From: Candidatus Promineifilaceae bacterium
Lineage (GTDB): Bacteria; Chloroflexota; Anaerolineae; Promineifilales; Promineifilaceae
Direction of reading: 5' to 3'
DNA: 25,922 bases
Assembly (NCBI GenBank): GCA_041570685.1
Contig: JBFFVR010000001.1
Location: 1-25,922, forward strand
Shown one piece after another: positions 12,154 to 25,806 of the stretch. The translations under genes were made by a program, and so were the position numbers. Below the pieces are notes generated by a model that saw only the letters and a list, made by a program, of their open reading frames with translations, searched no databases and was not told the origin of the DNA. Position 1 is the first letter of the stretch. Each line of letters begins with the position of its first letter.

Positions 12154-13146
12154 TTGGCGGTTAATTTGCGCGAATTATTCAATCAGTTGTTCTCCAGGCC
12201 CAGTGCAGAGCCGGGGGTGACAGAGCAGTCCGCCGGCACTTCTATCTCGCCATATCGTCCGAAGGTATTACTGGTCGTCTTCGATCCATTAGTCTTGTCA
12301 GAAGGCGGACGGCGATTGTCAGAAGTGCTGGGCTGGAATCAGGTAGACAATCTAATCGAGCAATATATAAACGACCTTCGTGCTGCCAGTGCTGGTTATT
12401 GCCACTACCAGATAGCGCACAGAGTTGAAGTTGATGGCTTCCCCGAAAAAATTGATGGATTTCGTTATTCAAGTGAACAGTACTTGGCTGCCTGGCACGC
12501 TCGAAGTGGCTTTCATGATCCCGATTGGGCTAACTATCGACGCATTCTCTCTGATGTTCGAGTAGTCGAGAGAGTGGCTGACCGGCAGATCGATGAAGTT
12601 TGGTTATTCGCCTTCCCATATGCAGGATTTTATGAATCACGGATGGCCGGCCCCGGAGCATTTTGGTGTAATTCGCCGCCACTAGATGGATATGAACATC
12701 TCGAGCGGCGTTTTATCGTCATGGGATTTAATTATGAACGAGGGGTAGGCGAAATGTTGGAGTCTCATGGTCACCGAGCAGAGTCGATTATGAGCCATGT
12801 ATTTCGAAATAAACGGGGAGAGGCTAATCTGTGGGATCGTTTCATACGTTATGATCGCAGTCATCCTGGACTCGCTGAAGTTGGCAATGTGCATTTCGCT
12901 CCTAACAGCCAGCGCGACTATGATTGGGGCAACAAGACCAAGGTTTTGAGTCGTTGTGACACTTGGTTGAATTTTCCTGATTTGTCTGGTCCTGCTCGAT
13001 CCGTGAATTGTTCAGAATGGGGCAACGGCGACACGCGCCAACATCATCTTTGGTGGTTCAGCCATATCCCACATGAAGCAGGCGAGCAAGCTGGGATCGC
13101 CAATAACTGGTGGCTATATATAACCGATCCGAATGCAGTTTTTTAG
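12154..13146 (+). CDS. Conserved hypothetical protein (Trp/His-rich, possible metalloprotein)
   Basis: 330-aa ORF 21 bp after the FAH gene; motif-like segments DEVWLF, GAFWCNSPP, MGFNYERGVGEMLESHGHRAES, GNVHFAPN, WWFSHIPH, NNWW. TTG start uncertain. Confidence 0.75.
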   Translation: MAVNLRELFNQLFSRPSAEPGVTEQSAGTSISPYRPKVLLVVFDPLVLSEGGRRLSEVLGWNQVDNLIEQYINDLRAASAGYCHYQIAHRVEVDGFPEKIDGFRYSSEQYLAAWHARSGFHDPDWANYRRILSDVRVVERVADRQIDEVWLFAFPYAGFYESRMAGPGAFWCNSPPLDGYEHLERRFIVMGFNYERGVGEMLESHGHRAESIMSHVFRNKRGEANLWDRFIRYDRSHPGLAEVGNVHFAPNSQRDYDWGNKTKVLSRCDTWLNFPDLSGPARSVNCSEWGNGDTRQHHLWWFSHIPHEAGEQAGIANNWWLYITDPNAVF

Positions 13147-13166
13147 GTGAAGGCTAGTATTAATTT

Positions 13167-14003
13167 TTATAGCTTTTTACGGTAGGCACCGAGGACTGTA
13201 TCAAATCCCAATAGCGGCGTAACAAGCACTTCTTGGGCTAGTGTTAGATCTAATCGAGTATCCCCAGGCCATTCGTCATCTGTCGGACCAATGGACAGGG
13301 TGTTTCTTGAACCAATTCCCCACCAATCAAGCAACTTAAGCCCAAATTCAGCTCGGCTCATTTCTTGGGATCCGGCAACATTGAGCGTGCCACGAAAGTT
13401 AATCACAGCCAATTCAAGACAGGCCAAGGCCAAGGTTAAGGCCCATGTTGGCTGGCGAAATTGGTTGTCAAATAAGACAACCTCATGACCTGCTTCAAGC
13501 GCTTCCTTAATCCAGCTTGTCGAATGATCCATAAGGCTCAGTCCGTAAATCAGGGAAGTGCGCACAATAACATGATTTGAATAATGACTCACGATCTCTT
13601 CTGCTTCCGCTTTAGCCCGGCCGTAGGCGTGAATTGGGGTTGGAGCATCGGTTTCTCGATAAGGAGCAGCCCGTCCGTCAAATAGCGCATCTGAGGATAA
13701 ATGGATTAATTTGGCATTCACTGTTTCTGCAGCAGCGGTGATGTGCCCTGTGCCTTGACGGATGACGGCATCCATATCCTGAGAACGATTAGAGCCGGCC
13801 GTATGAATGATGACATCGGGCTGAAACGCTGTAACTAGATTCTTAATTGGCTCATGGTCACGTAAGTCAATTCGCCTGCTCGCTGGGGAATTAAACGGAT
13901 CCTGGCGATAGATTGTGTAACGGGTTTCGAACTGACTAAAGGCGAGCGGAACCAGATGCTGGCCAAGAAAGCTCCCACCACCTGTTATCAAAAGTCTCTT
14001 CAC
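13167..14003 (-). CDS. Extended SDR, dTDP-4-dehydrorhamnose reductase (RmlD)-like
   Basis: LLITGGGSFLG, IIHTAG, IHLSSDALFDG, YRETDAPTPIHAYGRAK (YxxxK), DNQFRQPT; ATGA overlap with rnc stop. Confidence 0.85.
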   Translation of the reverse strand: MKRLLITGGGSFLGQHLVPLAFSQFETRYTIYRQDPFNSPASRRIDLRDHEPIKNLVTAFQPDVIIHTAGSNRSQDMDAVIRQGTGHITAAAETVNAKLIHLSSDALFDGRAAPYRETDAPTPIHAYGRAKAEAEEIVSHYSNHVIVRTSLIYGLSLMDHSTSWIKEALEAGHEVVLFDNQFRQPTWALTLALACLELAVINFRGTLNVAGSQEMSRAEFGLKLLDWWGIGSRNTLSIGPTDDEWPGDTRLDLTLAQEVLVTPLLGFDTVLGAYRKKL

Positions 14004-14740
14004 GCACCAGTTCCGGACAATGACTGCTTGCCTTTTTCGCCTTTGGCTTCCAAAATGGCTGCTTTTTTCAGAGCTGAGTCTGCTGCTTGTTGGGCGGCCT
14101 CTTGCTTGCTTGAGCCGTCCCCCACCCCCCAGTTTTCACCTGCTATCTGCACCGCAACCGTAAATATCTTGTCATGGTCGGGACCTTCGGCCGATAGCAC
14201 CTCGTAACGAGGGGTTTCATTGTATTGAGCTTGGGCCCAAATCTGAAATTCGCTTTTAGCATCCTTGTGGGCTGACTCGGCCAAAATATGATCCAAAGCA
14301 GGTGCGATAAAAGGTCGAACCCATTCCTCAACAACATCCAAACCCTGGTCGATGAAGATGGCGCCGACTATTGCCTCAAAGGCCGCACAGAGCGTTGGTG
14401 CACGCTCGCGTCCCCCTGATTCTGCCTCGCCATATCCCAGACGCAATGCTTCACCTACACCTAACTGCTGGGCAAAACTGGCTAGTGTTCTCGTTCTGAC
14501 GAGCGCTGCCCGCAGCATCGTCAATTCTCCTTCCTTCATTTCCGGAAATCTATGGTAAAGATAAGAACCGACTACGAAATCGAGGACAGCGTCGCCCAGG
14601 AACTCGAGTCTCTCATTATCCTCCAACGCTTTGTCCGGATTCTCATTTAGGAAAGAACGATGGGTTAATGCCCGGGTTAACAGAGAATAATCGTTGAAAT
14701 GAACGCCAAGACGTTCCTCAGTTTTCTGAAGTTCTTGCAT
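14000..14740 (-). CDS. rnc: Ribonuclease III
   Basis: ALTHRS, NERLEFLGDAVL, FEAIVGAIFID, dsRBD DAKSEFQ..AQ...P.Y...EGPDHDK.F..G.SK..A.Q.AA. Confidence 0.98.
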   Translation of the reverse strand: MQELQKTEERLGVHFNDYSLLTRALTHRSFLNENPDKALEDNERLEFLGDAVLDFVVGSYLYHRFPEMKEGELTMLRAALVRTRTLASFAQQLGVGEALRLGYGEAESGGRERAPTLCAAFEAIVGAIFIDQGLDVVEEWVRPFIAPALDHILAESAHKDAKSEFQIWAQAQYNETPRYEVLSAEGPDHDKIFTVAVQIAGENWGVGDGSSKQEAAQQAADSALKKAAILEAKGEKGKQSLSGTGA

Positions 14741-14828
14741 TATACAGGTGCATATGGCTAATCGAGATACATAGAAACAGGTCTAAGCCAGCGTTAGACT
14801 AATCCGTCAGGCGCGGCTATAGAAACGC

Positions 14829-16076
14829 TTAATCAACAAATTCTTTGAGTACTAGCACAGCATTATGGCCGCCAAATCCAAATGCATGGTTCAATGTCAC
14901 TTTTACGTCAGTTGGCCTTGCTTCATTAGGAATATAATCAAGATCACATTCAGGATCGGCGGTTTCATAATTGATTGTTGGGGGAACCATACGATCGCGA
15001 ATAGCAAGCAAACAAAAAACGCTCTCTATGGCTCCAGTTGCTCCCATGATATGTCCCGTCATTGATTTGGTTGAGCTAATGGGAACATCGTAGGCATGCT
15101 CGCCCAAGGCATGCTTAATGGACATGGTTTCATGAGAATCATTGAGCGGAGTTGCTGTTCCGTGGGCACTGATGTAATCCACGTCTGAAGGTTGCAGTCC
15201 CGCATCATCTAATGCCTTTGTTATCGCCTTGGCTGCGCCAACGCCACCTTCCGATGGCGCTGTTATATGATATGCGTCTGTCGTCTGCCCATAACCAACT
15301 ACCTCGCCGAGGATCGTTGCTCCCCGGTTTTTGGCATGTTCGAGGCTTTCCAATATGAGGATTCCTGCCCCTTCCCCAGGCACCAAACCATCGCGATTCT
15401 TGTCAAATGGCTGGGGAGTTTGGCTCGTTTTGTTAGATGTTGCGCCGGCTCGTTCAAATCCACCAACTGCAACCGATGTCATGATCGACTCGGAACCGCC
15501 AGAGATTATGACATCAGCTTGATTATCGCGGATCGCCCGAAAGGCATGTCCAATCGCATCGTTGCCAGCCGCACAGGCAGTAGTAATCGTGATGCTTGGT
15601 CCTTGCAGACCATAGTCAATTGCCAACATGCCCCCAGCTCCATTAGGCATGATCATAGTTATAGCAAAGGGACTTAGCCGGCGTAAGCCACGATTCATCA
15701 AGACATGCTCTTGTTCCACTAATGTCTGGATGCCACCTACGCCAGTACCTAAATAGATTCCGATGCGATCGCGATTTTCTTCGGTCACTTTCAAACCAGA
15801 TTGGGCAATGGCTTCATTCGTAGCAACCGTGGCCAACTGTTGGTAGCGATCTCTTCTCCTAGCTGCTTTCCGCCCAAGATAGACGCTGGCATCAAACTCT
15901 TTCACCTCACAAACACCAGCGAGACTGTGATCATCTCTATTCATCAAGGTGATATCACCAAATCCCGATTCTCCTGCAAGGAGAGCTGACCAGGTGTCTG
16001 CAGTGTTATGTCCTAATGGAGTCACTAACCCAGTGCCGGTAATTACTACTCGATTTCTTTTGTGATTATTCTCCAT
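14829..16076 (-). CDS. fabF: 3-oxoacyl-ACP synthase II
   Basis: RVVITGTGLVTPLG, catalytic TACAAG, HGTATPLND, SSTKSMTGHIMGA, AFGFGGHN. ATG at 16076 lies 7 nt from GGAG (16084-16087); the track start at 16079 is the adjacent TTG. Confidence 0.95.
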   Translation of the reverse strand: MENNHKRNRVVITGTGLVTPLGHNTADTWSALLAGESGFGDITLMNRDDHSLAGVCEVKEFDASVYLGRKAARRRDRYQQLATVATNEAIAQSGLKVTEENRDRIGIYLGTGVGGIQTLVEQEHVLMNRGLRRLSPFAITMIMPNGAGGMLAIDYGLQGPSITITTACAAGNDAIGHAFRAIRDNQADVIISGGSESIMTSVAVGGFERAGATSNKTSQTPQPFDKNRDGLVPGEGAGILILESLEHAKNRGATILGEVVGYGQTTDAYHITAPSEGGVGAAKAITKALDDAGLQPSDVDYISAHGTATPLNDSHETMSIKHALGEHAYDVPISSTKSMTGHIMGATGAIESVFCLLAIRDRMVPPTINYETADPECDLDYIPNEARPTDVKVTLNHAFGFGGHNAVLVLKEFVD

Positions 16077-18335: not shown

Positions 18336-20288
18336 ATGAATGATTTGACAACAACTCAGTTGCCAGATCGGCAAGAGCAAAAAGGAGTACGGAGACAGGG
18401 CCTGCTGCAACCAGGGGCCACTCTTCAGGATAGATACCAAGTTATGGGTACTCTTGGTGTTGGCGGATTTAGTTCGGTCTACAAAGCTCGCGACATGCAT
18501 TTCCCAACCGTTACACGATTATGTGCGGTTAAGGAGATGGTGCATGTTAATCGGGACCCAAAAATACGCCAGATGGCCACGGCGTCATTCGAACGGGAGG
18601 CGAGCATTCTTGCGACGCTTGATCATCCGGCCGTCCCCGATGTTTATGATTTCTTCACCGAGGCTGATCGAAGTTACCTGGTGATTGAATACATCAACGG
18701 CCGTGACCTCGAAGCGTTGTTAGCCGAACAGGCGACCACCTTCCCCGTTGCAACAGTTATCGATTGGTCGCTGCAACTATGTCATGTTCTAGAGTATTTG
18801 CACAGCCATGAACCGAACCCCGTGATCTTTCGTGATTTAAAGCCCTCCAATATTATGCTTGATCGTCATGGAAGAGTTCGCCTGATAGATTTCAACATCG
18901 CGAAGCTTTTCCATACGGGCCTGAAGGGCACCATGATTGGAACGGAGGGATATTCACCCCCTGAACAATATCGGGGAGAGTCTAGTCCTGCCGGGGATAT
19001 CTATGCGCTTGGTGCGACATTGCACCACATTTTAACTCGCCAGGATCCCCGAACCGAGCCGCCGTTTTCTTTTGGAGACAGACCAATAGATGAGGCCAAT
19101 CCAGAGGTGCCGACCGAGCTAGAGTCAATAATCAGCCGCTGTCTTTCTTATGACGCCAGCGCTCGCTTTCAAAAGGTTATCGAGCTAAGACAGGCCTTGG
19201 AATCTATTGCACCTTTGATGATTTCCTTGAACTCAGGAAGCCAGCCTATATCTTCTTCGAACTTAGTTGCCAAGGCCGCTAAAAAGGCAGATTCCAAGCA
19301 ATCGATAATCACAGGCCCGCATCAAACGGATGCTATCAAGCCCTTGTGGTTATTTAAATGTGAGGATGAAATTCGTTCAACCCCGACCATTTTTGATGGC
19401 AAGATATATTTGGGAACTTATGATCACAATCTCTATGCCGTAAATCTGGAAGACGGGGAGTTGGTTTGGAAATATCCTACAGCAGACTGCATAGCGTCAT
19501 CAGCTGCAGTTTATAGAAATTCGGTCTTTATCGGCTCGGCTGACGGCTTTTTATACAGCGTGAACACGGATACCGGTCGCCTTCAGTGGCGATTTGAAAC
19601 GGGTGGCCCGGTTTACTCTTCCCCTAAAGCTGATTTTGAACATGTCTTTTTCGGTTCTGATGATGGTTTCATATACGCGGTCAGCACTGCAAATGGTCGG
19701 AAAGTCTGGCAATCAAACGCCCATGGCATTGTTCGTTCGACCCCATTTCTCAGTGATGATCGATTATATTTTGGGACTGAAGGGGGATATGTATTTGCCC
19801 TCGACTTATCTGGAAATGTTAAATGGCAATTTCAAGCCAAGAGGTCGATCACTTCCTCGCCAGCTTTAGCTGATGACATGATCTTCTTTGGCTCGAGAGA
19901 TTCTACCATTTATGCGATTGATTCAAGTTCCGGATGGGCATTATGGCGTTTTCGCTCTCGACGACCTATTGTCTCCTCGCCAGTCATTAATGAGAAGACG
20001 CTATATATCGGTTCTTCTGATGGAAATCTTTATGCTCTTGATATTTATACAGGAAGACAAATTTGGGCCTACCAAACGGACGGACAGATTAATTCTTCTC
20101 CAGTTGTGAAAGATGATCATGTTTATTTTGGTTCCACAGAGGGCGCCCTATATTGCTTAAGTACTAAACGAGGAAAACTCCGTTGGCGATACAATACAAA
20201 AGGCGTTGTTGTAGGCTCGCCAGCAATTGAGGATGATGTTCTTTACGTAGGTTCTGGCGACAATTATTTATACGCCTTGCCTATCTGA
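18336..20288 (+). CDS. Hanks-type Ser/Thr protein kinase with C-terminal PQQ/BamB-like 8-bladed beta-propeller (AfsK-like architecture)
   Basis: GVGGFSSVY, AVKE, FEREA, IFRDLKPSNIM, DFNIAK, GTEGYSPPEQ, DIYALG; eight ~40-aa repeats W.f.t...i.SsP......vy.Gs.Dg.lYA from about 19347; no transmembrane helix visible. Confidence 0.95.
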   Translation: MNDLTTTQLPDRQEQKGVRRQGLLQPGATLQDRYQVMGTLGVGGFSSVYKARDMHFPTVTRLCAVKEMVHVNRDPKIRQMATASFEREASILATLDHPAVPDVYDFFTEADRSYLVIEYINGRDLEALLAEQATTFPVATVIDWSLQLCHVLEYLHSHEPNPVIFRDLKPSNIMLDRHGRVRLIDFNIAKLFHTGLKGTMIGTEGYSPPEQYRGESSPAGDIYALGATLHHILTRQDPRTEPPFSFGDRPIDEANPEVPTELESIISRCLSYDASARFQKVIELRQALESIAPLMISLNSGSQPISSSNLVAKAAKKADSKQSIITGPHQTDAIKPLWLFKCEDEIRSTPTIFDGKIYLGTYDHNLYAVNLEDGELVWKYPTADCIASSAAVYRNSVFIGSADGFLYSVNTDTGRLQWRFETGGPVYSSPKADFEHVFFGSDDGFIYAVSTANGRKVWQSNAHGIVRSTPFLSDDRLYFGTEGGYVFALDLSGNVKWQFQAKRSITSSPALADDMIFFGSRDSTIYAIDSSSGWALWRFRSRRPIVSSPVINEKTLYIGSSDGNLYALDIYTGRQIWAYQTDGQINSSPVVKDDHVYFGSTEGALYCLSTKRGKLRWRYNTKGVVVGSPAIEDDVLYVGSGDNYLYALPI

Positions 20289-20320: not shown

Positions 20321-21406
20321 ATGCGCAATTTCTTCAGAAACTTTTTTAATGGAAAGCCCAGAGAAAGACCTATGAATGGACCAGATGATAATTTAGAAGG
20401 AATCAACGGTAATGGGCTTGTATCCAAGCAGGAACTTGATCAAGTTAGTGGCGAGCAAATGAGCGATACGACAATTGATCTTCCTGAGGATGCTGTTGAT
20501 TTGCCTAGAGAAGGGGATTCAGATCTCCATAAGGAGGAAACCAGACCAACAAAGGTAAGCCTAGAAGATACTCTCGTTGGCCTTGGCAAGGGTAATATCC
20601 ATTCAAAGACAGGTCGCAAATTACTTCAAGCAGCTCAGTATAGCCATATTGGAAATATCAGATCGCGCAATGAGGATTCCACTCAAATATTTACGGCCGG
20701 CTCTGGTGGGCAAGAACCCCTCGTCCCCTTTGGTTTTTATCTCCTTGCAGATGGGATGGGTGGCCATCATGCAGGACACGAAGCGAGTAAATATGTCGCT
20801 CGCTTTGTAGCCAAGCAGGTATTAGAGCGAATTTACATCCCCCTATTGAAAACGAGTATTGATTCCAATGGCACGCCGCCAGAACCTGTTCGTGAAGTAA
20901 TGCTCGATGCCGTTCAACATGCAAATCAGCATATATATAATCCGCAGCCTGATAAAGGTGGCGGTACAACGTTGACGGCCGCTCTGGTTTTTGGTCGCAG
21001 ATTGTACCTAACGCATGTGGGTGACAGTCGGGCCTACCTGTTGGTCGAAGATGGGCTCGAGATAATTACTGATGATCATTCTTATGTGCATCGATTGCAA
21101 GAATCGGGACAGATTACAGAGGAAGAGGCTGCAGTCCATCCGCAACGCAACATGTTGTATCGTGCTGTTGGACAGGGTGGCCAACTAGAGATCGATACCT
21201 TTACAAGAACGCTACCGGAGAATGGAAAATTGATGTTATGTAGCGATGGACTTTGGGGTCTGATTCCTGATGATGTCATCGCTCATGTGTTAGGACAAAA
21301 TCTCTCGTTGGAGACGTTAGCTGAACAGCTTATCAGCCTAGGATTGAAAGCTGGTGGGCATGACAACATCTCAACCGTTATTGTGGAGTTTAACTTCTCA
21401 GCCTGA
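20321..21406 (+). CDS. PP2C/PPM family Ser/Thr phosphatase with ~100-aa N-terminal extension
   Basis: GNIRSRNEDS, LADGMGGHHAG..AS, GTTLT, HVGDSRAY, DHS, CSDGLWG, GGHDNIS. Confidence 0.93.
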   Translation: MRNFFRNFFNGKPRERPMNGPDDNLEGINGNGLVSKQELDQVSGEQMSDTTIDLPEDAVDLPREGDSDLHKEETRPTKVSLEDTLVGLGKGNIHSKTGRKLLQAAQYSHIGNIRSRNEDSTQIFTAGSGGQEPLVPFGFYLLADGMGGHHAGHEASKYVARFVAKQVLERIYIPLLKTSIDSNGTPPEPVREVMLDAVQHANQHIYNPQPDKGGGTTLTAALVFGRRLYLTHVGDSRAYLLVEDGLEIITDDHSYVHRLQESGQITEEEAAVHPQRNMLYRAVGQGGQLEIDTFTRTLPENGKLMLCSDGLWGLIPDDVIAHVLGQNLSLETLAEQLISLGLKAGGHDNISTVIVEFNFSA

Positions 21407-21453
21407 GAATATGAGCCTGGGAGCCTAGAGAGTCATCCGAGGTAATTCCCCAA

Positions 21454-21906
21454 ATGGCGACCTGCAACGAGTGTCGGAAAGAATTTCTTACCGGCGTCCT
21501 TAGCTGTCCTGAATGTGGCGCGTTCGTTTGGGGTGATACAATTGCGCTAAATCCAGATTCGGGTGATTTAGAATCGTCGGAATTGGTTGCTTTTGTAAAT
21601 CTGAATACTAAACGACGCTGGGTATTACCCTTGAAGAATGACATCCGCATCGGCCGGGCAGATCCTGATAAAGAAGTCTGGCCTGAAATTGACTTAAGTG
21701 GGGACAATAATGCTGTAAATGGCGTATCGCGAGAACATGCTATACTTCGTTGTTCAGAACACGGTCCGGTTTTGTTGGATTTGGACAGCACAAACGGCAC
21801 AGTAATAAATAATTTTCCACTATCACCAAATCAACCGTACCTTATTCAAGACGGTGACAGGGTGCAATTTGGAAATTTACTTGTAAAAGTTTATCTGAAA
21901 AACTAA
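21454..21906 (+). CDS. Zinc-ribbon + FHA domain protein
   Basis: CxxC-x10-CxxC at N-terminus; FHA core IGR...VSREHA...DLDSTNGT.IN...I.DGD.V.FG; GAGGT SD. Confidence 0.9.
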   Translation: MATCNECRKEFLTGVLSCPECGAFVWGDTIALNPDSGDLESSELVAFVNLNTKRRWVLPLKNDIRIGRADPDKEVWPEIDLSGDNNAVNGVSREHAILRCSEHGPVLLDLDSTNGTVINNFPLSPNQPYLIQDGDRVQFGNLLVKVYLKN

Positions 21907-21928: not shown

Positions 21929-22174
21929 ATGAGTATTACAATTATAGTTCATATAATCAATGAAGAGGCGATCCTCGCTGAAATCGAGAATTTGCCTGAA
22001 CCTAACGATCAAGTGCTCGTGATAGATAATCCTCGGAAACGCGATGGAAAGGATCTCCATTATTTGGAGGATGAAGCTACAACGATCATCGTTCCCTGGC
22101 ATCGGATCAACTTTGTCGAAATCATGCCGTCAGAAGCTGAAATGGAAGAAGTCATTACCTTTGTGCGTGAATAA
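21929..22174 (+). CDS. Small acidic hypothetical protein
   Basis: 81-aa ORF with GAGGT SD, fills the gap between FHA and regulator genes; stop overlaps next start (TAATG). Confidence 0.78.
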
Positions 22175-22926
22175 TGGTTGAGCAGATACCTGATTCTCTT
22201 GCTGCTAGCAGCCCTCGTCTTGTTTTAGTTGTAGATGATGAGCCACGAATGATCCGGTTTATCCGGATGAATTTAGAGTTGGAGGGTTATCGTGTCATTG
22301 AGGCGAGTGACGGATTACAGGCTCTCGATCAAGTGCGAAAGCACCTACCAGATTTAGTAATCATGGACGTCATGATGCCTAAAATGGATGGATTCGAAAC
22401 CTTACGCTTGTTGCGGGAGATCTCTACGGTTCCCGTCATACTACTGACTGTAAAGAGTGATGAAGAAGACCGAATATTTGGGCTTGAATTGGGTGCCGAC
22501 GACTATGTCACGAAACCATTTAGTCCCCGCGAGTTGGTCAGCAGGGTTAACGCCGTTTTACGGCGTGCGGACTGGCCATCCGCTACTCCACGGGCGGTAT
22601 TAAAAATAGACGATAATCTTTCCATTGATTTCAATCGGCATCAAGTTATTGTGGCAGGTGACCGAATTGATCTTCGTCCCACAGAATATCGACTATTAAG
22701 TCACCTGATTCAAAACGCAGGATGGGTTGTGCCCCACGAAACTCTGCTGGCCAAAGTATGGGGCTATGAATATCGAGACGAAACCCATTATTTGCGACTA
22801 TATATTAACTATTTAAGAAAGAAGATTGAACAAGATCCTGCTAACCCTCAATATATCTTGACCGAACGAGGCGTAGGGTACCGATTTGCCGATTTCAAGA
22901 ACAAGGAATTGTTAAGAGACCACTGA
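22174..22926 (+). CDS. OmpR/PhoB-family response regulator (KdpE-like)
   Basis: [37 protein letters not shown], winged helix [28 protein letters not shown]. Confidence 0.95.
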
Positions 22927-22930
22927 AATA

Positions 22931-25153
22931 ATGGTGTCACCGGTTGACTCGGGGACTCTAGAGGCGCACGCACATTTCATTAGTCCCGACGGCCGCGAGT
23001 TCTTCGAGCTTATCCAAACTTACATTCCGAAAAACGAACAGTTTCGCGTTCACGAAGCTTTTGAACTTGCTCGCCATGAACACGGTACTCAACGCCGTCG
23101 ATCAGGCGAGCTTTTTTTTACCCACCCGCTCACGGTTGCTTACTATTTAGCCGAATACCATCTTGAATCCGCAGCCCTTATGGCTGCGCTTCTTCATGAT
23201 GTGGCTGAAGACACTCTGGTTTCCATCGAACAGATTAAACATCAATTCGGTAGTGAAGTTAGCCAGCTAGTCGACGGTGTAACAAAGTTGAAGGAAGTGA
23301 CAGCCGTAGTCGCCCGTGATCGCGCATTGACATCAAAAGAGATTCAAGACGCTAGCCTCCACAAGATGTTCAATGCTATGACAATCGATGTTCGCGTGGT
23401 TCTAATTAAACTATTCGATCGTTTGCACAACATGCGCACGATCTATGCTCTCCCTCAAACGAAACAACAGCTTAAAGCCGAGGAAACCCTGGCGGTATAT
23501 GCTCCACTTGCTAACCGGCTCGGAATTTGGAAAGTGAAAACGGAGCTTGAAGCTCTCTCATTAAAAGTCATCGACAATGAAGCCTACCGTATGATACAGC
23601 AGGTTTTGGAGCAGGATAATCATAGAAGCCAGGCATCCTATATGGCTATTGCCGAACAGATTATTAAATATCTGCACGAAAACGGCATAAAAGTGGCGAA
23701 TGTTTTGCCAAATCCGGAAAGTATCTACAGCGTCTATAAAACGCAAAAGGCGCGTTCGGCGCCCTATGACAACGTAGAAACGCCACTTCGAGTCGTCATT
23801 CTTTTAGAGGACGTTCCCTCCTGTTATCTCGCACTGGGCTATGTGCATCAGTTATGGCGGCCGGTTCCTGGAAAATTTGATGATTACATCGGCGTTCCTC
23901 GTGAAAATCTCTATCGTGCCCTGCATACCACAGTCATTTACAGCGATGGTCAACCCTTAAAGGTGCGTTTTCGCAGCTTGGCGATGAATGTCGTATCGGA
24001 AATTGGTGTTCTGGCTCGATCTTTTTATTCCAGCACACCCATGTGGACCAATGATTTGGCGGAGAGAGTTGAAGCCTTATTCGCTAATGTAAATGAAAAT
24101 ATACATTTAGAGCCCCAAAATCTCAGCACCGGTGTTCAAGGAGTTGTCGAAGATGTATTTCGCCAACAGGTAATGGTATATACGCCTCGAGGTGATATCG
24201 TTGAATTGCCTTTAGGGGCGACACCTGTCGATTTCGCCTACGCCATTCATACGGCTGTAGGTAATCACTGTTTAATGGCGTATGTTAATGAACAACCTTA
24301 TCCGCTTAATAAGCCATTGAATGATGGTGATCAGGTTCGAATTGTGAAATCAGGTTGGGCTCGTCCTCAACGCACCTGGCTAGATGAAGATTTAGGCTAT
24401 ATGACAACCAGCCGAGCTAGGTCTCGCGTTCGCCGCTGGTTTCGCCGTCTATCCGAACCCATGGCAATTGCTGAGGGACGCAAACTACTCCAGGACGAAC
24501 TCGCGATGCTGGGAATGTCGAATCATTCGCATGAATGGGTGGCGGAACAATTTGGTTTTAATCGGGTCGTTGATTTATACCATGAGTTTGGCCGTGCTGA
24601 ACTGTTGCCGACCACAGTTGCGACTCGAATCCTTGCCGAAAAGTGGCACCAGGAACCTTCCAGATACATAGGCAATACCGTCCGTACCGAGGCTGGTCAA
24701 GAGTTTGTTATAACAAATTCGTCGGGACGTGACCTCCGCCTATGCTTATCCTGCAATGCACGACCAGGAGATATCATCGTGGGCTTTTTACGAACGGACG
24801 GCGGGGTTACGGTGCATAAAGAGGGTTGTTACACATTGCGTCCTGATCCGTTAGCAGATCGGACAATCAAATTGGATTGGGGCCAGGCGGGGCAAGAGGA
24901 AGTACGCATTGTAACGATTCAAATCGATGTATTTGACCGGGCAGGATTGCTCTTAGAAATAGCGCTTCTTTTACAGGACGAAAACGTCAATATCGCCTCG
25001 ATTAATACGCAGCAGAACGGTGACGATGGCAAGGTAAGTTTAAACCTCGATCTGGAAATTGCGAATCCTCGTCAACTCGTCAGAATTCTACACCGGGCAC
25101 ATGCCTTGGTTAACGTGTATGCCGTCTATTGTCTGCGAGAGCCAGCCGATTAG
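22931..25153 (+). CDS. Long RelA/SpoT homologue: intact HD hydrolase, degenerate (pseudo) synthetase, TGS, helical, Zn-finger and ACT domains
   Basis: RRSGE..THP, LLHDVAEDT, DGVTKL, IKLFDRLHNMRT; synthetase region lacks GRxK, D and ExQxRT; TGS VYTPRGD...GATPVDFAYAIHT; C..C...PGD..HK.GC; ACT DRAGLLLEI. Confidence 0.92.
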   Translation: MVSPVDSGTLEAHAHFISPDGREFFELIQTYIPKNEQFRVHEAFELARHEHGTQRRRSGELFFTHPLTVAYYLAEYHLESAALMAALLHDVAEDTLVSIEQIKHQFGSEVSQLVDGVTKLKEVTAVVARDRALTSKEIQDASLHKMFNAMTIDVRVVLIKLFDRLHNMRTIYALPQTKQQLKAEETLAVYAPLANRLGIWKVKTELEALSLKVIDNEAYRMIQQVLEQDNHRSQASYMAIAEQIIKYLHENGIKVANVLPNPESIYSVYKTQKARSAPYDNVETPLRVVILLEDVPSCYLALGYVHQLWRPVPGKFDDYIGVPRENLYRALHTTVIYSDGQPLKVRFRSLAMNVVSEIGVLARSFYSSTPMWTNDLAERVEALFANVNENIHLEPQNLSTGVQGVVEDVFRQQVMVYTPRGDIVELPLGATPVDFAYAIHTAVGNHCLMAYVNEQPYPLNKPLNDGDQVRIVKSGWARPQRTWLDEDLGYMTTSRARSRVRRWFRRLSEPMAIAEGRKLLQDELAMLGMSNHSHEWVAEQFGFNRVVDLYHEFGRAELLPTTVATRILAEKWHQEPSRYIGNTVRTEAGQEFVITNSSGRDLRLCLSCNARPGDIIVGFLRTDGGVTVHKEGCYTLRPDPLADRTIKLDWGQAGQEEVRIVTIQIDVFDRAGLLLEIALLLQDENVNIASINTQQNGDDGKVSLNLDLEIANPRQLVRILHRAHALVNVYAVYCLREPAD

Positions 25154-25212: not shown

Positions 25213-25240
25213 TTGACACGATAGCAAGAATCCATATAAT
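25213..25240 (+). promoter_or_regulatory. Consensus sigma70-type promoter
   Basis: TTGACA (25213-25218) - 16 nt - TATAAT (25235-25240), both hexamers perfect; 260 nt upstream of next ATG. Confidence 0.8.
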
Positions 25241-25500: not shown

Positions 25501-25806
25501 ATGTTGAAGAAAAAATATTTCAAAACCAAAGATGAGTGTGAGGTTACCTTCGAGTACGCGACTGAGTCTGCAGAATCAGTATCGTTAGTCTCTGAAGCTA
25601 ATAACTGGCAACCACTAGAAATGAAGAAGCGCAAAAAAGATGGTATCTACTATACTAAATTGCGTTTACCTAAGGGTGGTCAGTTCCAGTACTTGTATTT
25701 GGTCGATGGCCAAAATTGGGTGACGGATTCATCAGCCGATGCTTACTCCCCTAATGAGTTTGGTGGTCAAAACGGGGTCGTCGATACGACGCCATCAGCC
25801 AACTAA
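25501..25806 (+). CDS. Stand-alone glycogen-binding CBM48 / isoamylase early-set domain protein
   Basis: C.VTF......A.SV.LV...NNW...M...K.G.....L.L..G..FQY.YLVDG.NW..D..AD.Y.PN.FG..N pattern; AAGGAG SD. Confidence 0.85.
   Translation: MLKKKYFKTKDECEVTFEYATESAESVSLVSEANNWQPLEMKKRKKDGIYYTKLRLPKGGQFQYLYLVDGQNWVTDSSADAYSPNEFGGQNGVVDTTPSAN

Follow-up and report, generated by a model that had tools for sequence, protein, structure and literature searches.

In the Moraxellaceae, the two activities of bifunctional Rel[HS], a long RelA/SpoT homolog (RSH), are completely divided between two proteins. SpoT[Hs] of A. baumannii (7QPR/7QPS) is a full-length RSH with a live (p)ppGpp hydrolase (HD) domain, a retained pseudo-synthetase and a TGS, helical, zinc-finger and RRM tail (PMC9974481); it is paired with RelA[hS], a synthetase-only long RSH whose hydrolase is dead. 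The 2011 RSH survey by Atkinson et al. gave this as the sole complete [Hs]/[hS] split and recorded only Rel[HS] and small hydrolases in Chloroflexi (PMC3153485), and the SpoT structure paper placed the subfunctionalization within the Gammaproteobacteria (PMC9974481). Here we analyzed a stretch of 25,922 nucleotides (the window) from contig JBFFVR010000001.1 of Candidatus Promineifilaceae bacterium (Chloroflexota; Anaerolineae), which carries a long RSH gene. On sequence, phylogeny and predicted structure, we consider it likely that this gene encodes a dedicated long-RSH (p)ppGpp hydrolase, [Hs], with a non-catalytic pseudo-synthetase, that it works with an [hS] partner encoded on contig C9 of the same genome, and that the split arose independently within the Chloroflexota (Anaerolineae). 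No paper on such a split was found for Chloroflexi, Anaerolineae, Promineifilum or Ardenticatena. A prior class is possible in the subfamily tables of Jimmy et al. 2020, who treated the RSHs of 24,072 genomes and 13 long-RSH subfamilies, the names of which are absent from the main text (PMC7229694). The locus would represent a convergent Chloroflexota variant of the known [Hs]/[hS] system, undescribed so far in the literature searched.

The open reading frame at 22931-25153 on the forward strand translates without a stop into a 740-aa protein (P0001, hereafter the window RSH), which the initial annotation had described as a live hydrolase beside a dead synthetase. All hydrolase motifs were indeed located at the positions given there: RRRSGE (55-60), THP (64-66), H89-D90-x2-E93-D94, GVTK (116-119) and DRLHN (163-167). 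In these enzymes the 2H2D motif consists of the four metal ligands, and efficient catalysis depends on the invariant ED diad (PMC11554896). The window RSH has the 2H2D Mn ligands H65, H89, D90 and D163 and both residues of the ED diad, E93 and D94, all of them conserved, and T118/K119 and N167 are also present.

The synthetase half is extensively remodeled. Its states were read from ungapped phmmer alignments to 8FR8, 6YXA and 5IQR together with MAFFT alignments, and every replacement named in the initial annotation was recovered. GRPK has become P260-N-P-E263, with both Arg and Lys lost and the Lys replaced by Glu, a reversal of charge, and SIYRKM has become SVYKTQ. T284, within VETPLR, stands where the catalytic Asp would be; E-x-Q-x-R-T reads K344-V-R346-F-R348-S, and H..AE.G.AAHW.YK reads N..SEIGVLARSFYS. 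The guanine-stacking pair Y328-x3-H332 is retained, as had also been noted.

This remodeling is shared and maintained. All 120 best homologs of the window RSH (55-91% identity) keep the HD motifs and have the same remodeled synthetase, with the common pattern x-P-E-[NS], K-x-R-x-R-[ST], NLYR[AS]LHT and SE[IV]G[VI]LA[RK]W, which argues that the synthetase is not the product of chance decay. Where sources are named, these homologs come from metagenome-assembled genomes (MAGs) labeled 'Candidatus Promineifilaceae', 'Ardenticatenaceae', 'Anaerolineae' or 'Chloroflexota'. Across the clade of H-type proteins, that is, those resembling the window RSH, conservation is at least 90% for the replacement residues K344, R346, R348 and P262 and complete for Y328 and H332. 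The ratio of nonsynonymous to synonymous substitution rates (dN/dS), estimated against two close relatives and rough because dS is about 1, is 0.080 for the pseudo-synthetase and 0.058 for the HD domain. The conserved replacements and the low dN/dS together indicate that the pseudo-domain is conserved and functional rather than decaying, and the proposal of a dead synthetase next to a live hydrolase holds at the level of motifs as a clade-wide pattern under purifying selection. The balance of constraint is reversed between the two paralogs: mean pairwise identity in H-types is 0.64 for HD and 0.48 for the synthetase domain, and in the synthetase-bearing S-types it is 0.48 and 0.63, respectively.

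Full-length architecture is also preserved. The Pfam matches are, in order, HD_4 (151.7 bits), RelA_SpoT (no more than 58.7 bits), TGS, RelA_AH_RIS and ACT_4, so that the long-RSH succession of HD, synthetase, TGS, helical, zinc-finger and ACT/RRM domains is complete, with a confident model for each, and the tail that the initial annotation had described as retained is present, including zinc-finger ligands C605, C608, H629 and C633. The protein scores 547.5 bits against the long-RSH model TIGR00691 (cut-off 499.2) over aa 43-732. It falls well below the cut-offs of the SpoT equivalog NF008303 (439.9 against 947 bits) and of the RelA equivalog NF008124 (339.3 against 728 bits), and its motif states are the reverse of those of RelA. 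Only one of the two intact sites that define bifunctional Rel[HS] is found, that of the hydrolase; the sequence instead corresponds to the [Hs] state with a RelA-like [hS] partner in the same genome. Judged by equivalog score and phylogeny, the gene is a Rel-derived Chloroflexota paralog outside the SpoT subfamily. The zinc finger itself (window 24743-24829, aa 605-633) shows a further change: where Rel, RelA and SpoT have A-x-C-C-x-P-[IV]-P, the H-type clade of families f1 and f2 (defined below) has L-C-x-[ST]-C-x-x-R-P, and in the window RSH the adjacent Cys pair has become C605-x-x-C608, followed by H629 and C633.

A hydrolase-only RSH had led the initial annotation to expect a synthetase-active Rel or small synthetase elsewhere in the genome. 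The assembly is a 55% complete MAG (1.62 Mb, 286 contigs), and a profile search with the synthetase and hydrolase families returned exactly two matches: the window RSH and, on contig C9, a long RSH of 724 aa (P0002) with 33% identity to it. The synthetase motifs of P0002 are complete (GRPKHIYSIYRKM, Y-D, EVQIRT, AERGIAAHWAYK), and a synthetase-active partner is accordingly predicted. The match goes beyond that expectation in that the hydrolase ED diad of P0002 is also lost: the metal ligands are kept, but HDxxED reads HDVMLS, DRLHN reads DRLQD and H-P reads H-D. In the genome profile search the two proteins score in opposite directions, 61.8 against 143.8 bits for RelA_SpoT and 155.6 against 132.3 bits for HD_4 (window RSH against P0002). 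These reciprocal motif states indicate that the genome carries an [Hs] and [hS] pair.

The pair is widespread in the order. We surveyed 41 related genomes, 32 of which belong to f1 and f2, two families of the order of the window (Promineifilaceae/Ardenticatenaceae-type MAGs, Anaerolineae), counting as H-type or S-type the low- or high-scoring synthetase domains in frames of about 750 aa. In these two families, H-types occur in 31 of the 32 genomes, S-types in 30 and both in 29; completeness of the three genomes without the full pair is 69-88%. When 300 more genomes of the class were surveyed, a single RSH synthetase match was seen in most families, and all of the 20 single-copy proteins sampled have both sites intact. 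RelA_SpoT scores are 58.7-61.8 bits for the H-type copy of the window, compared with 130-160 bits for active-looking copies. The reciprocal pattern runs throughout the 20 genomes in which both copies were compared. H-types keep RRxSGE (with some substitutions, mostly in f2), HP, HDxxED, TK and DRxHN (mostly DRLHN) and have lost the synthetase motifs, and in S-types the synthetase motifs are kept while the ED diad and HN are gone. Erosion of the S-type hydrolase has gone as far in f2 as in E. coli RelA, and in another family, f4, the partner of the H-type copy still has a bifunctional look (L023, L043). When the pseudo-domain alone was searched against 1.84 billion cluster representatives, 12 clusters were found at E <= 1e-30, with more [Hs]-looking full-length proteins lower down.

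The f2 S-types (L038-L042) additionally have a longer Core, with a median of 69 versus 57 residues, and the linker between their helical and zinc-finger domains is longer as well (69 versus 47). In E. coli RelA, this linker is also lengthened (58) and the Core is not (60). The lengthening and the fully eroded HD motifs of f2 S-types form a convergent RelA-like trend without counterpart in f1.

The initial annotation had viewed the enzyme as independently evolved outside the Proteobacteria, and phylogenetic analysis bears this out. In a 93-row tree, the H-types of f1 and f2 form one clade (support 100) and the S-types another (98), with congruent internal orders, as would be expected if the two genes have descended side by side from the ancestor of the order. 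In a wider tree, rooted among outgroups that comprised E. coli and four further phyla, the H clade (98) takes in the f4 copy and three deeper representatives. It is placed within the Chloroflexota, and its sister group (support 90) is the class-wide Rel clade to which the S-types belong. Two branches (96 and 95) enclose the H clade and leave out E. coli SpoT and a SpoT-like representative. A tree constrained to unite the H clade with E. coli SpoT is worse by 36.9 log-likelihood units and is rejected by the approximately unbiased (AU) test (p-AU 0.018; 47 rows), the constrained group having been chosen after inspection of the tree. Independence from the proteobacterial RelA/SpoT split is thus supported at the sequence level. 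The duplication may date back to the origin of the class, followed by many losses, or only to that of the order, in which case the H branch has evolved faster.

Two local features of these sequences recall the E. coli proteins. In the TGS domain (window 24287-24319, aa 453-463), N-E-Q-P-Y-P-L-N-K-P-L resembles D-R-Q-P-Y-P-L-S-Q-P-L of E. coli SpoT, as opposed to N-G-R-x-V-P-L-D-Y-x-L of Rel/RelA. Horizontal transfer from, or a common origin with, proteobacterial SpoT was considered on account of this QPYPL stretch and rejected on the grounds of the tree, the AU test and its absence from deeper members; the stretch is confined to part of f1 and is probably a local convergence or chance. E. coli RelA (L095), for its part, falls in both trees among Anaerolineae Rel, beside the clade that holds the S-types (support 84-89) and away from E. 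coli SpoT, which is probably a long-branch or convergence artefact.

The window RSH can be compared with several described systems. Its best sequence matches in the Protein Data Bank are bifunctional Rel[HS] structures with the same domain order and fold (RelSeq 1VJ7, B. subtilis 6YXA, Mycobacterium 8FR8, S. aureus 7OIW; 32-39% identity), and only the window RSH has lost the catalytic and ATP-binding residues of the synthetase. Moraxellaceae SpoT[Hs] shares its overall state and its pairing with an [hS] protein. However, the window clade is of separate origin, with its own replacements (K-x-R-x-R and x-P-E), unshortened linkers and, in f1, a kinase/regulator cassette. A lesser likeness is found in Arabidopsis AtRSH1, a long RSH that keeps its synthetase domain and acts as a (p)ppGpp hydrolase beside synthesizing RSHs (PMC5633626). 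AtRSH1 is eukaryotic, chloroplast-targeted and inactivated by a single Gly-to-Ser change, whereas in the window RSH five motifs have been remodeled and then conserved. RshA-RshD are likewise extra, divergent long RSH copies that came from Rel within single phyla, and RshB has a strongly diverged HD domain like that of RelA (PMC3153485), but they come from Actinobacteria, Bacteroidetes, Bacilli and Deltaproteobacteria.

An AlphaFold2 model of the window RSH, built from 70 sequences, is compact and has a mean predicted local distance difference test score (pLDDT) of 86.5 and a predicted template modeling (TM) score of 0.80; pLDDT in the pseudo-domain is 81-96. Its N-terminal half superposes on the solved catalytic halves of Rel (7OIW, 8ACU, 1VJ7, 24IO) with TM scores of 0.88-0.91.

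The H-type gene of f1 lies in a constant neighborhood (Table 1). It is the last of a same-strand series of kinase, PP2C phosphatase, FHA protein, 81-aa protein, regulator and RSH, separated by 32, 47, 22, -1 and 4 nucleotides. In every f1 locus with enough flanking sequence, the regulator (78-88% identity) stands directly upstream of the H-type gene and after the same cassette, and a distant member of the H clade on a 3.76-Mb contig has the same gene order, whereas H-type copies in f2 and f4 occur without the cassette. Sediment RNA-seq contains sparse pieces of 99-100% identity, one of which (22842-22992) crosses the junction between regulator and RSH, at a depth of about 2 and with intergenic DNA also covered; DNA carry-over is possible.

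Table 1. Predicted genes of the RSH locus and domains of the window RSH, in window coordinates.
Feature	Coordinates	Strand	Remarks
Ser/Thr protein kinase with PQQ beta-propeller	18336..20288	+	first gene of the cassette
PP2C Ser/Thr phosphatase	20321..21406	+	upstream cassette
FHA-domain protein	21454..21906	+	150 aa; upstream cassette
Conserved 81-aa protein	21929..22174	+	no Pfam family; upstream cassette
OmpR-type response regulator (orphan)	22174..22926	+	stop 4 nt before the RSH start
H-type long RSH gene, putative [Hs]	22931..25153	+	740 aa; predicted live hydrolase, pseudo-synthetase and full regulatory tail
HD (p)ppGpp hydrolase domain	23057..23530	+	aa 43-200; 2H2D, ED diad, T118/K119 and N167 all there
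Pseudo-synthetase domain	23720..24034	+	aa 264-368 by Pfam match; fold about aa 205-370
TGS domain	24173..24349	+	aa 415-473
Helical (AH) and zinc-finger (RIS/ZFD) region	24404..24880	+	aa 492-650
ACT/RRM domain	24908..25129	+	aa 660-733

The cassette itself varies slightly. In relatives, a vWA-domain gene lies between PP2C and FHA (L177:2808-4046; a gap of about 1.3 kb in L005-L016 and L097-L116); in the window, FHA follows PP2C directly (21406-21454) and the vWA gene is missing, and in the closest relative, L179, the gap is also too short for it. Downstream of the RSH, a perfect sigma-70 consensus (TTGACA, 16 nucleotides, TATAAT) at 25213-25240 precedes the gene at 25501-25806, which encodes a 101-aa CBM48/AMPK-glycogen-binding-like protein and follows the H-type RSH in many, but not all, f1 loci (45-70% identity).

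Taken together, these data suggest a division of labor in which the HD domain of the window RSH, given its complete active site, would remove the 3'-diphosphate of (p)ppGpp. The former synthetase would make nothing, since the AAHW helix is lost along with the acidic residues that bind Mg and the Arg and Lys that bind ATP. Conservation and the analogy with Acinetobacter SpoT (PMC9974481) suggest that the pseudo-domain and tail instead hold or tune the hydrolase, and the kept guanine pocket and new basic triad would make nucleotide sensing a plausible extension of this role. Allosteric binding of GDP or GTP by the pseudo-domain is plausible because Y328 and H332 of the G-loop are invariant and dN/dS is low. 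Synthesis, to judge from P0002, would be supplied by the C9 partner. Since that partner lacks the ED diad, the window hydrolase should be needed to keep the alarmone in check, a need that fits the near-universal presence of the H-type wherever the partner occurs. The C-terminal domains of S-types stay closer to ancestral Rel (identity to single-copy Rel, S-type versus H-type: TGS 0.65 versus 0.46; ZFD 0.44 versus 0.26), from which we infer that the S-type partner may be the starved-ribosome sensor. In f1, synteny suggests that hydrolase expression is tied to the upstream phospho-signaling cassette and that the hydrolase is co-expressed with the regulator.

Several results weigh against this interpretation. 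E283 immediately precedes the catalytic-Asp position and shows E/D conservation in f1, so a one-residue register shift is possible there, which leaves the other four losses unaffected; f2 H-types hold Asp at the catalytic position itself, making residual or altered chemistry formally possible. Such residues would suit a weakly bifunctional enzyme like E. coli SpoT, one that uses the shifted E283 and other residues to make a little alarmone in special conditions, and the weak synthetase of E. coli SpoT can matter physiologically (PMC9974481). We nonetheless regard this alternative as highly improbable: five motifs are lost together, including ExQ (now basic), the Arg and Lys of GRPK (the Lys now Glu) and AAHWxYK, all of which E. 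coli SpoT (L096) keeps, and the Pfam synthetase score has fallen far below that of active-looking copies. With respect to the partner, the 55% completeness of the MAG means that further RSH genes may exist in the genome, some relatives within the genus carry a small synthetase, and an HD domain that scores 132 bits and has four Mn ligands may allow P0002 weak hydrolysis. A tree in which the H clade is forced to be sister to the S-types is not rejected (p-AU 0.352), although the H clade takes a basal position relative to the class Rel clade. Finally, the overall arrangement of the model is unlike compact 7QPR (TM 0.40-0.43, a predicted model being weak evidence on conformation) and gives no global match to ribosome-bound RelA either; the shortening of linkers reported for Acinetobacter SpoT[Hs] was not found, linker lengths being those of single-copy Rel.

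The constant neighborhood in f1 and in the distant clade member, together with C-terminal domains so far from ancestral Rel, could also mean that the HD domain has changed its substrate to (pp)pApp, NADPH or another 3'-pyrophosphorylated nucleotide and serves the kinase/regulator cassette rather than the stringent response. We consider this very unlikely, since every residue of the (p)ppGpp hydrolase site is kept, the partner without an ED diad creates a need for a (p)ppGpp hydrolase, and f2 and f4 members lack the cassette. A different suggestion concerns the pseudo-synthetase and is a refinement of the dedicated-hydrolase interpretation, with which it is compatible: K-x-R-x-R and the guanine-stacking Tyr/His may bind (p)ppGpp, GDP or GTP and switch the hydrolase, nucleotide sensing having replaced ribosome control. 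The invariance of Y328 and H332, the conservation of K344, R346 and R348 in place of an acidic/amide pair, the dN/dS of 0.08 and the high confidence of the domain model are consistent with a ligand sensor; moreover, nucleotide-dependent allosteric coupling of the catalytic domains is established for Rel, and two of the best structural matches are the pppGpp-bound 7OIW and 24IO. Conversely, the ATP-side residues are lost, with the charge reversed from Lys to E263, and a structural role, or contact with another domain, would account equally well for the conserved basic residues, so we put the sensor forward only tentatively, as possible but not probable. Rather less likely still, and speculative as a whole, is the combination in which Rel has split in two, the hydrolase has become the output of the Ser/Thr-kinase/PP2C/FHA/regulator cassette and the pseudo-synthetase acts as a nucleotide-sensing allosteric switch. 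If it were true, alarmone breakdown in these filamentous Chloroflexota would be set by phospho-signaling and nucleotide pools instead of the ribosome, and it would amount to a second, convergent solution showing what the pseudo-synthetase is for.

A dedicated hydrolase arising from an old, widespread and independent split in a distant phylum would provide a natural replicate of the gammaproteobacterial case. Features that recur in both (pseudo-domain, guanine pocket, regulatory tail) would likely be required, and those that differ (linkers, replacement residues, gene context) would be details of lineage. The interpretation would also correct database labels, as these proteins are annotated 'bifunctional (p)ppGpp synthetase/hydrolase' or 'GTP pyrophosphokinase', and it bears on the stress physiology of Promineifilaceae-type filaments, whose record titles point to sediment and wastewater-type metagenomes.

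Some RSH-like genes encountered in the survey fall outside the H/S pair. Three relatives contain weak RelA_SpoT matches (29-59 bits) in frames of 1100-1250 aa (G015:C285:4277-4594, G013:C258:32679-32924 and G016:C151:25685-25930), which represent a predicted third, unusual RSH-like protein. In Chloroflexota families outside the class of the window, two long-RSH-like genes stand in tandem on one contig, for example G436:C41:10366-12558 and 12745-15063, with further tandem pairs on G357:C10, G390:C65, G382:C1, G406:C1, G346:C90, G334:C56, G374:C16, G414:C91 and G429:C1. One public record, DATLAB010000016.1 (L097), is titled 'Patescibacteria group bacterium' and carries an H-type RSH of 74% identity with the full cassette; the same sequence is contig G001:C16 (94,224 bp) of a relative in the genus, and the public label looks wrong.

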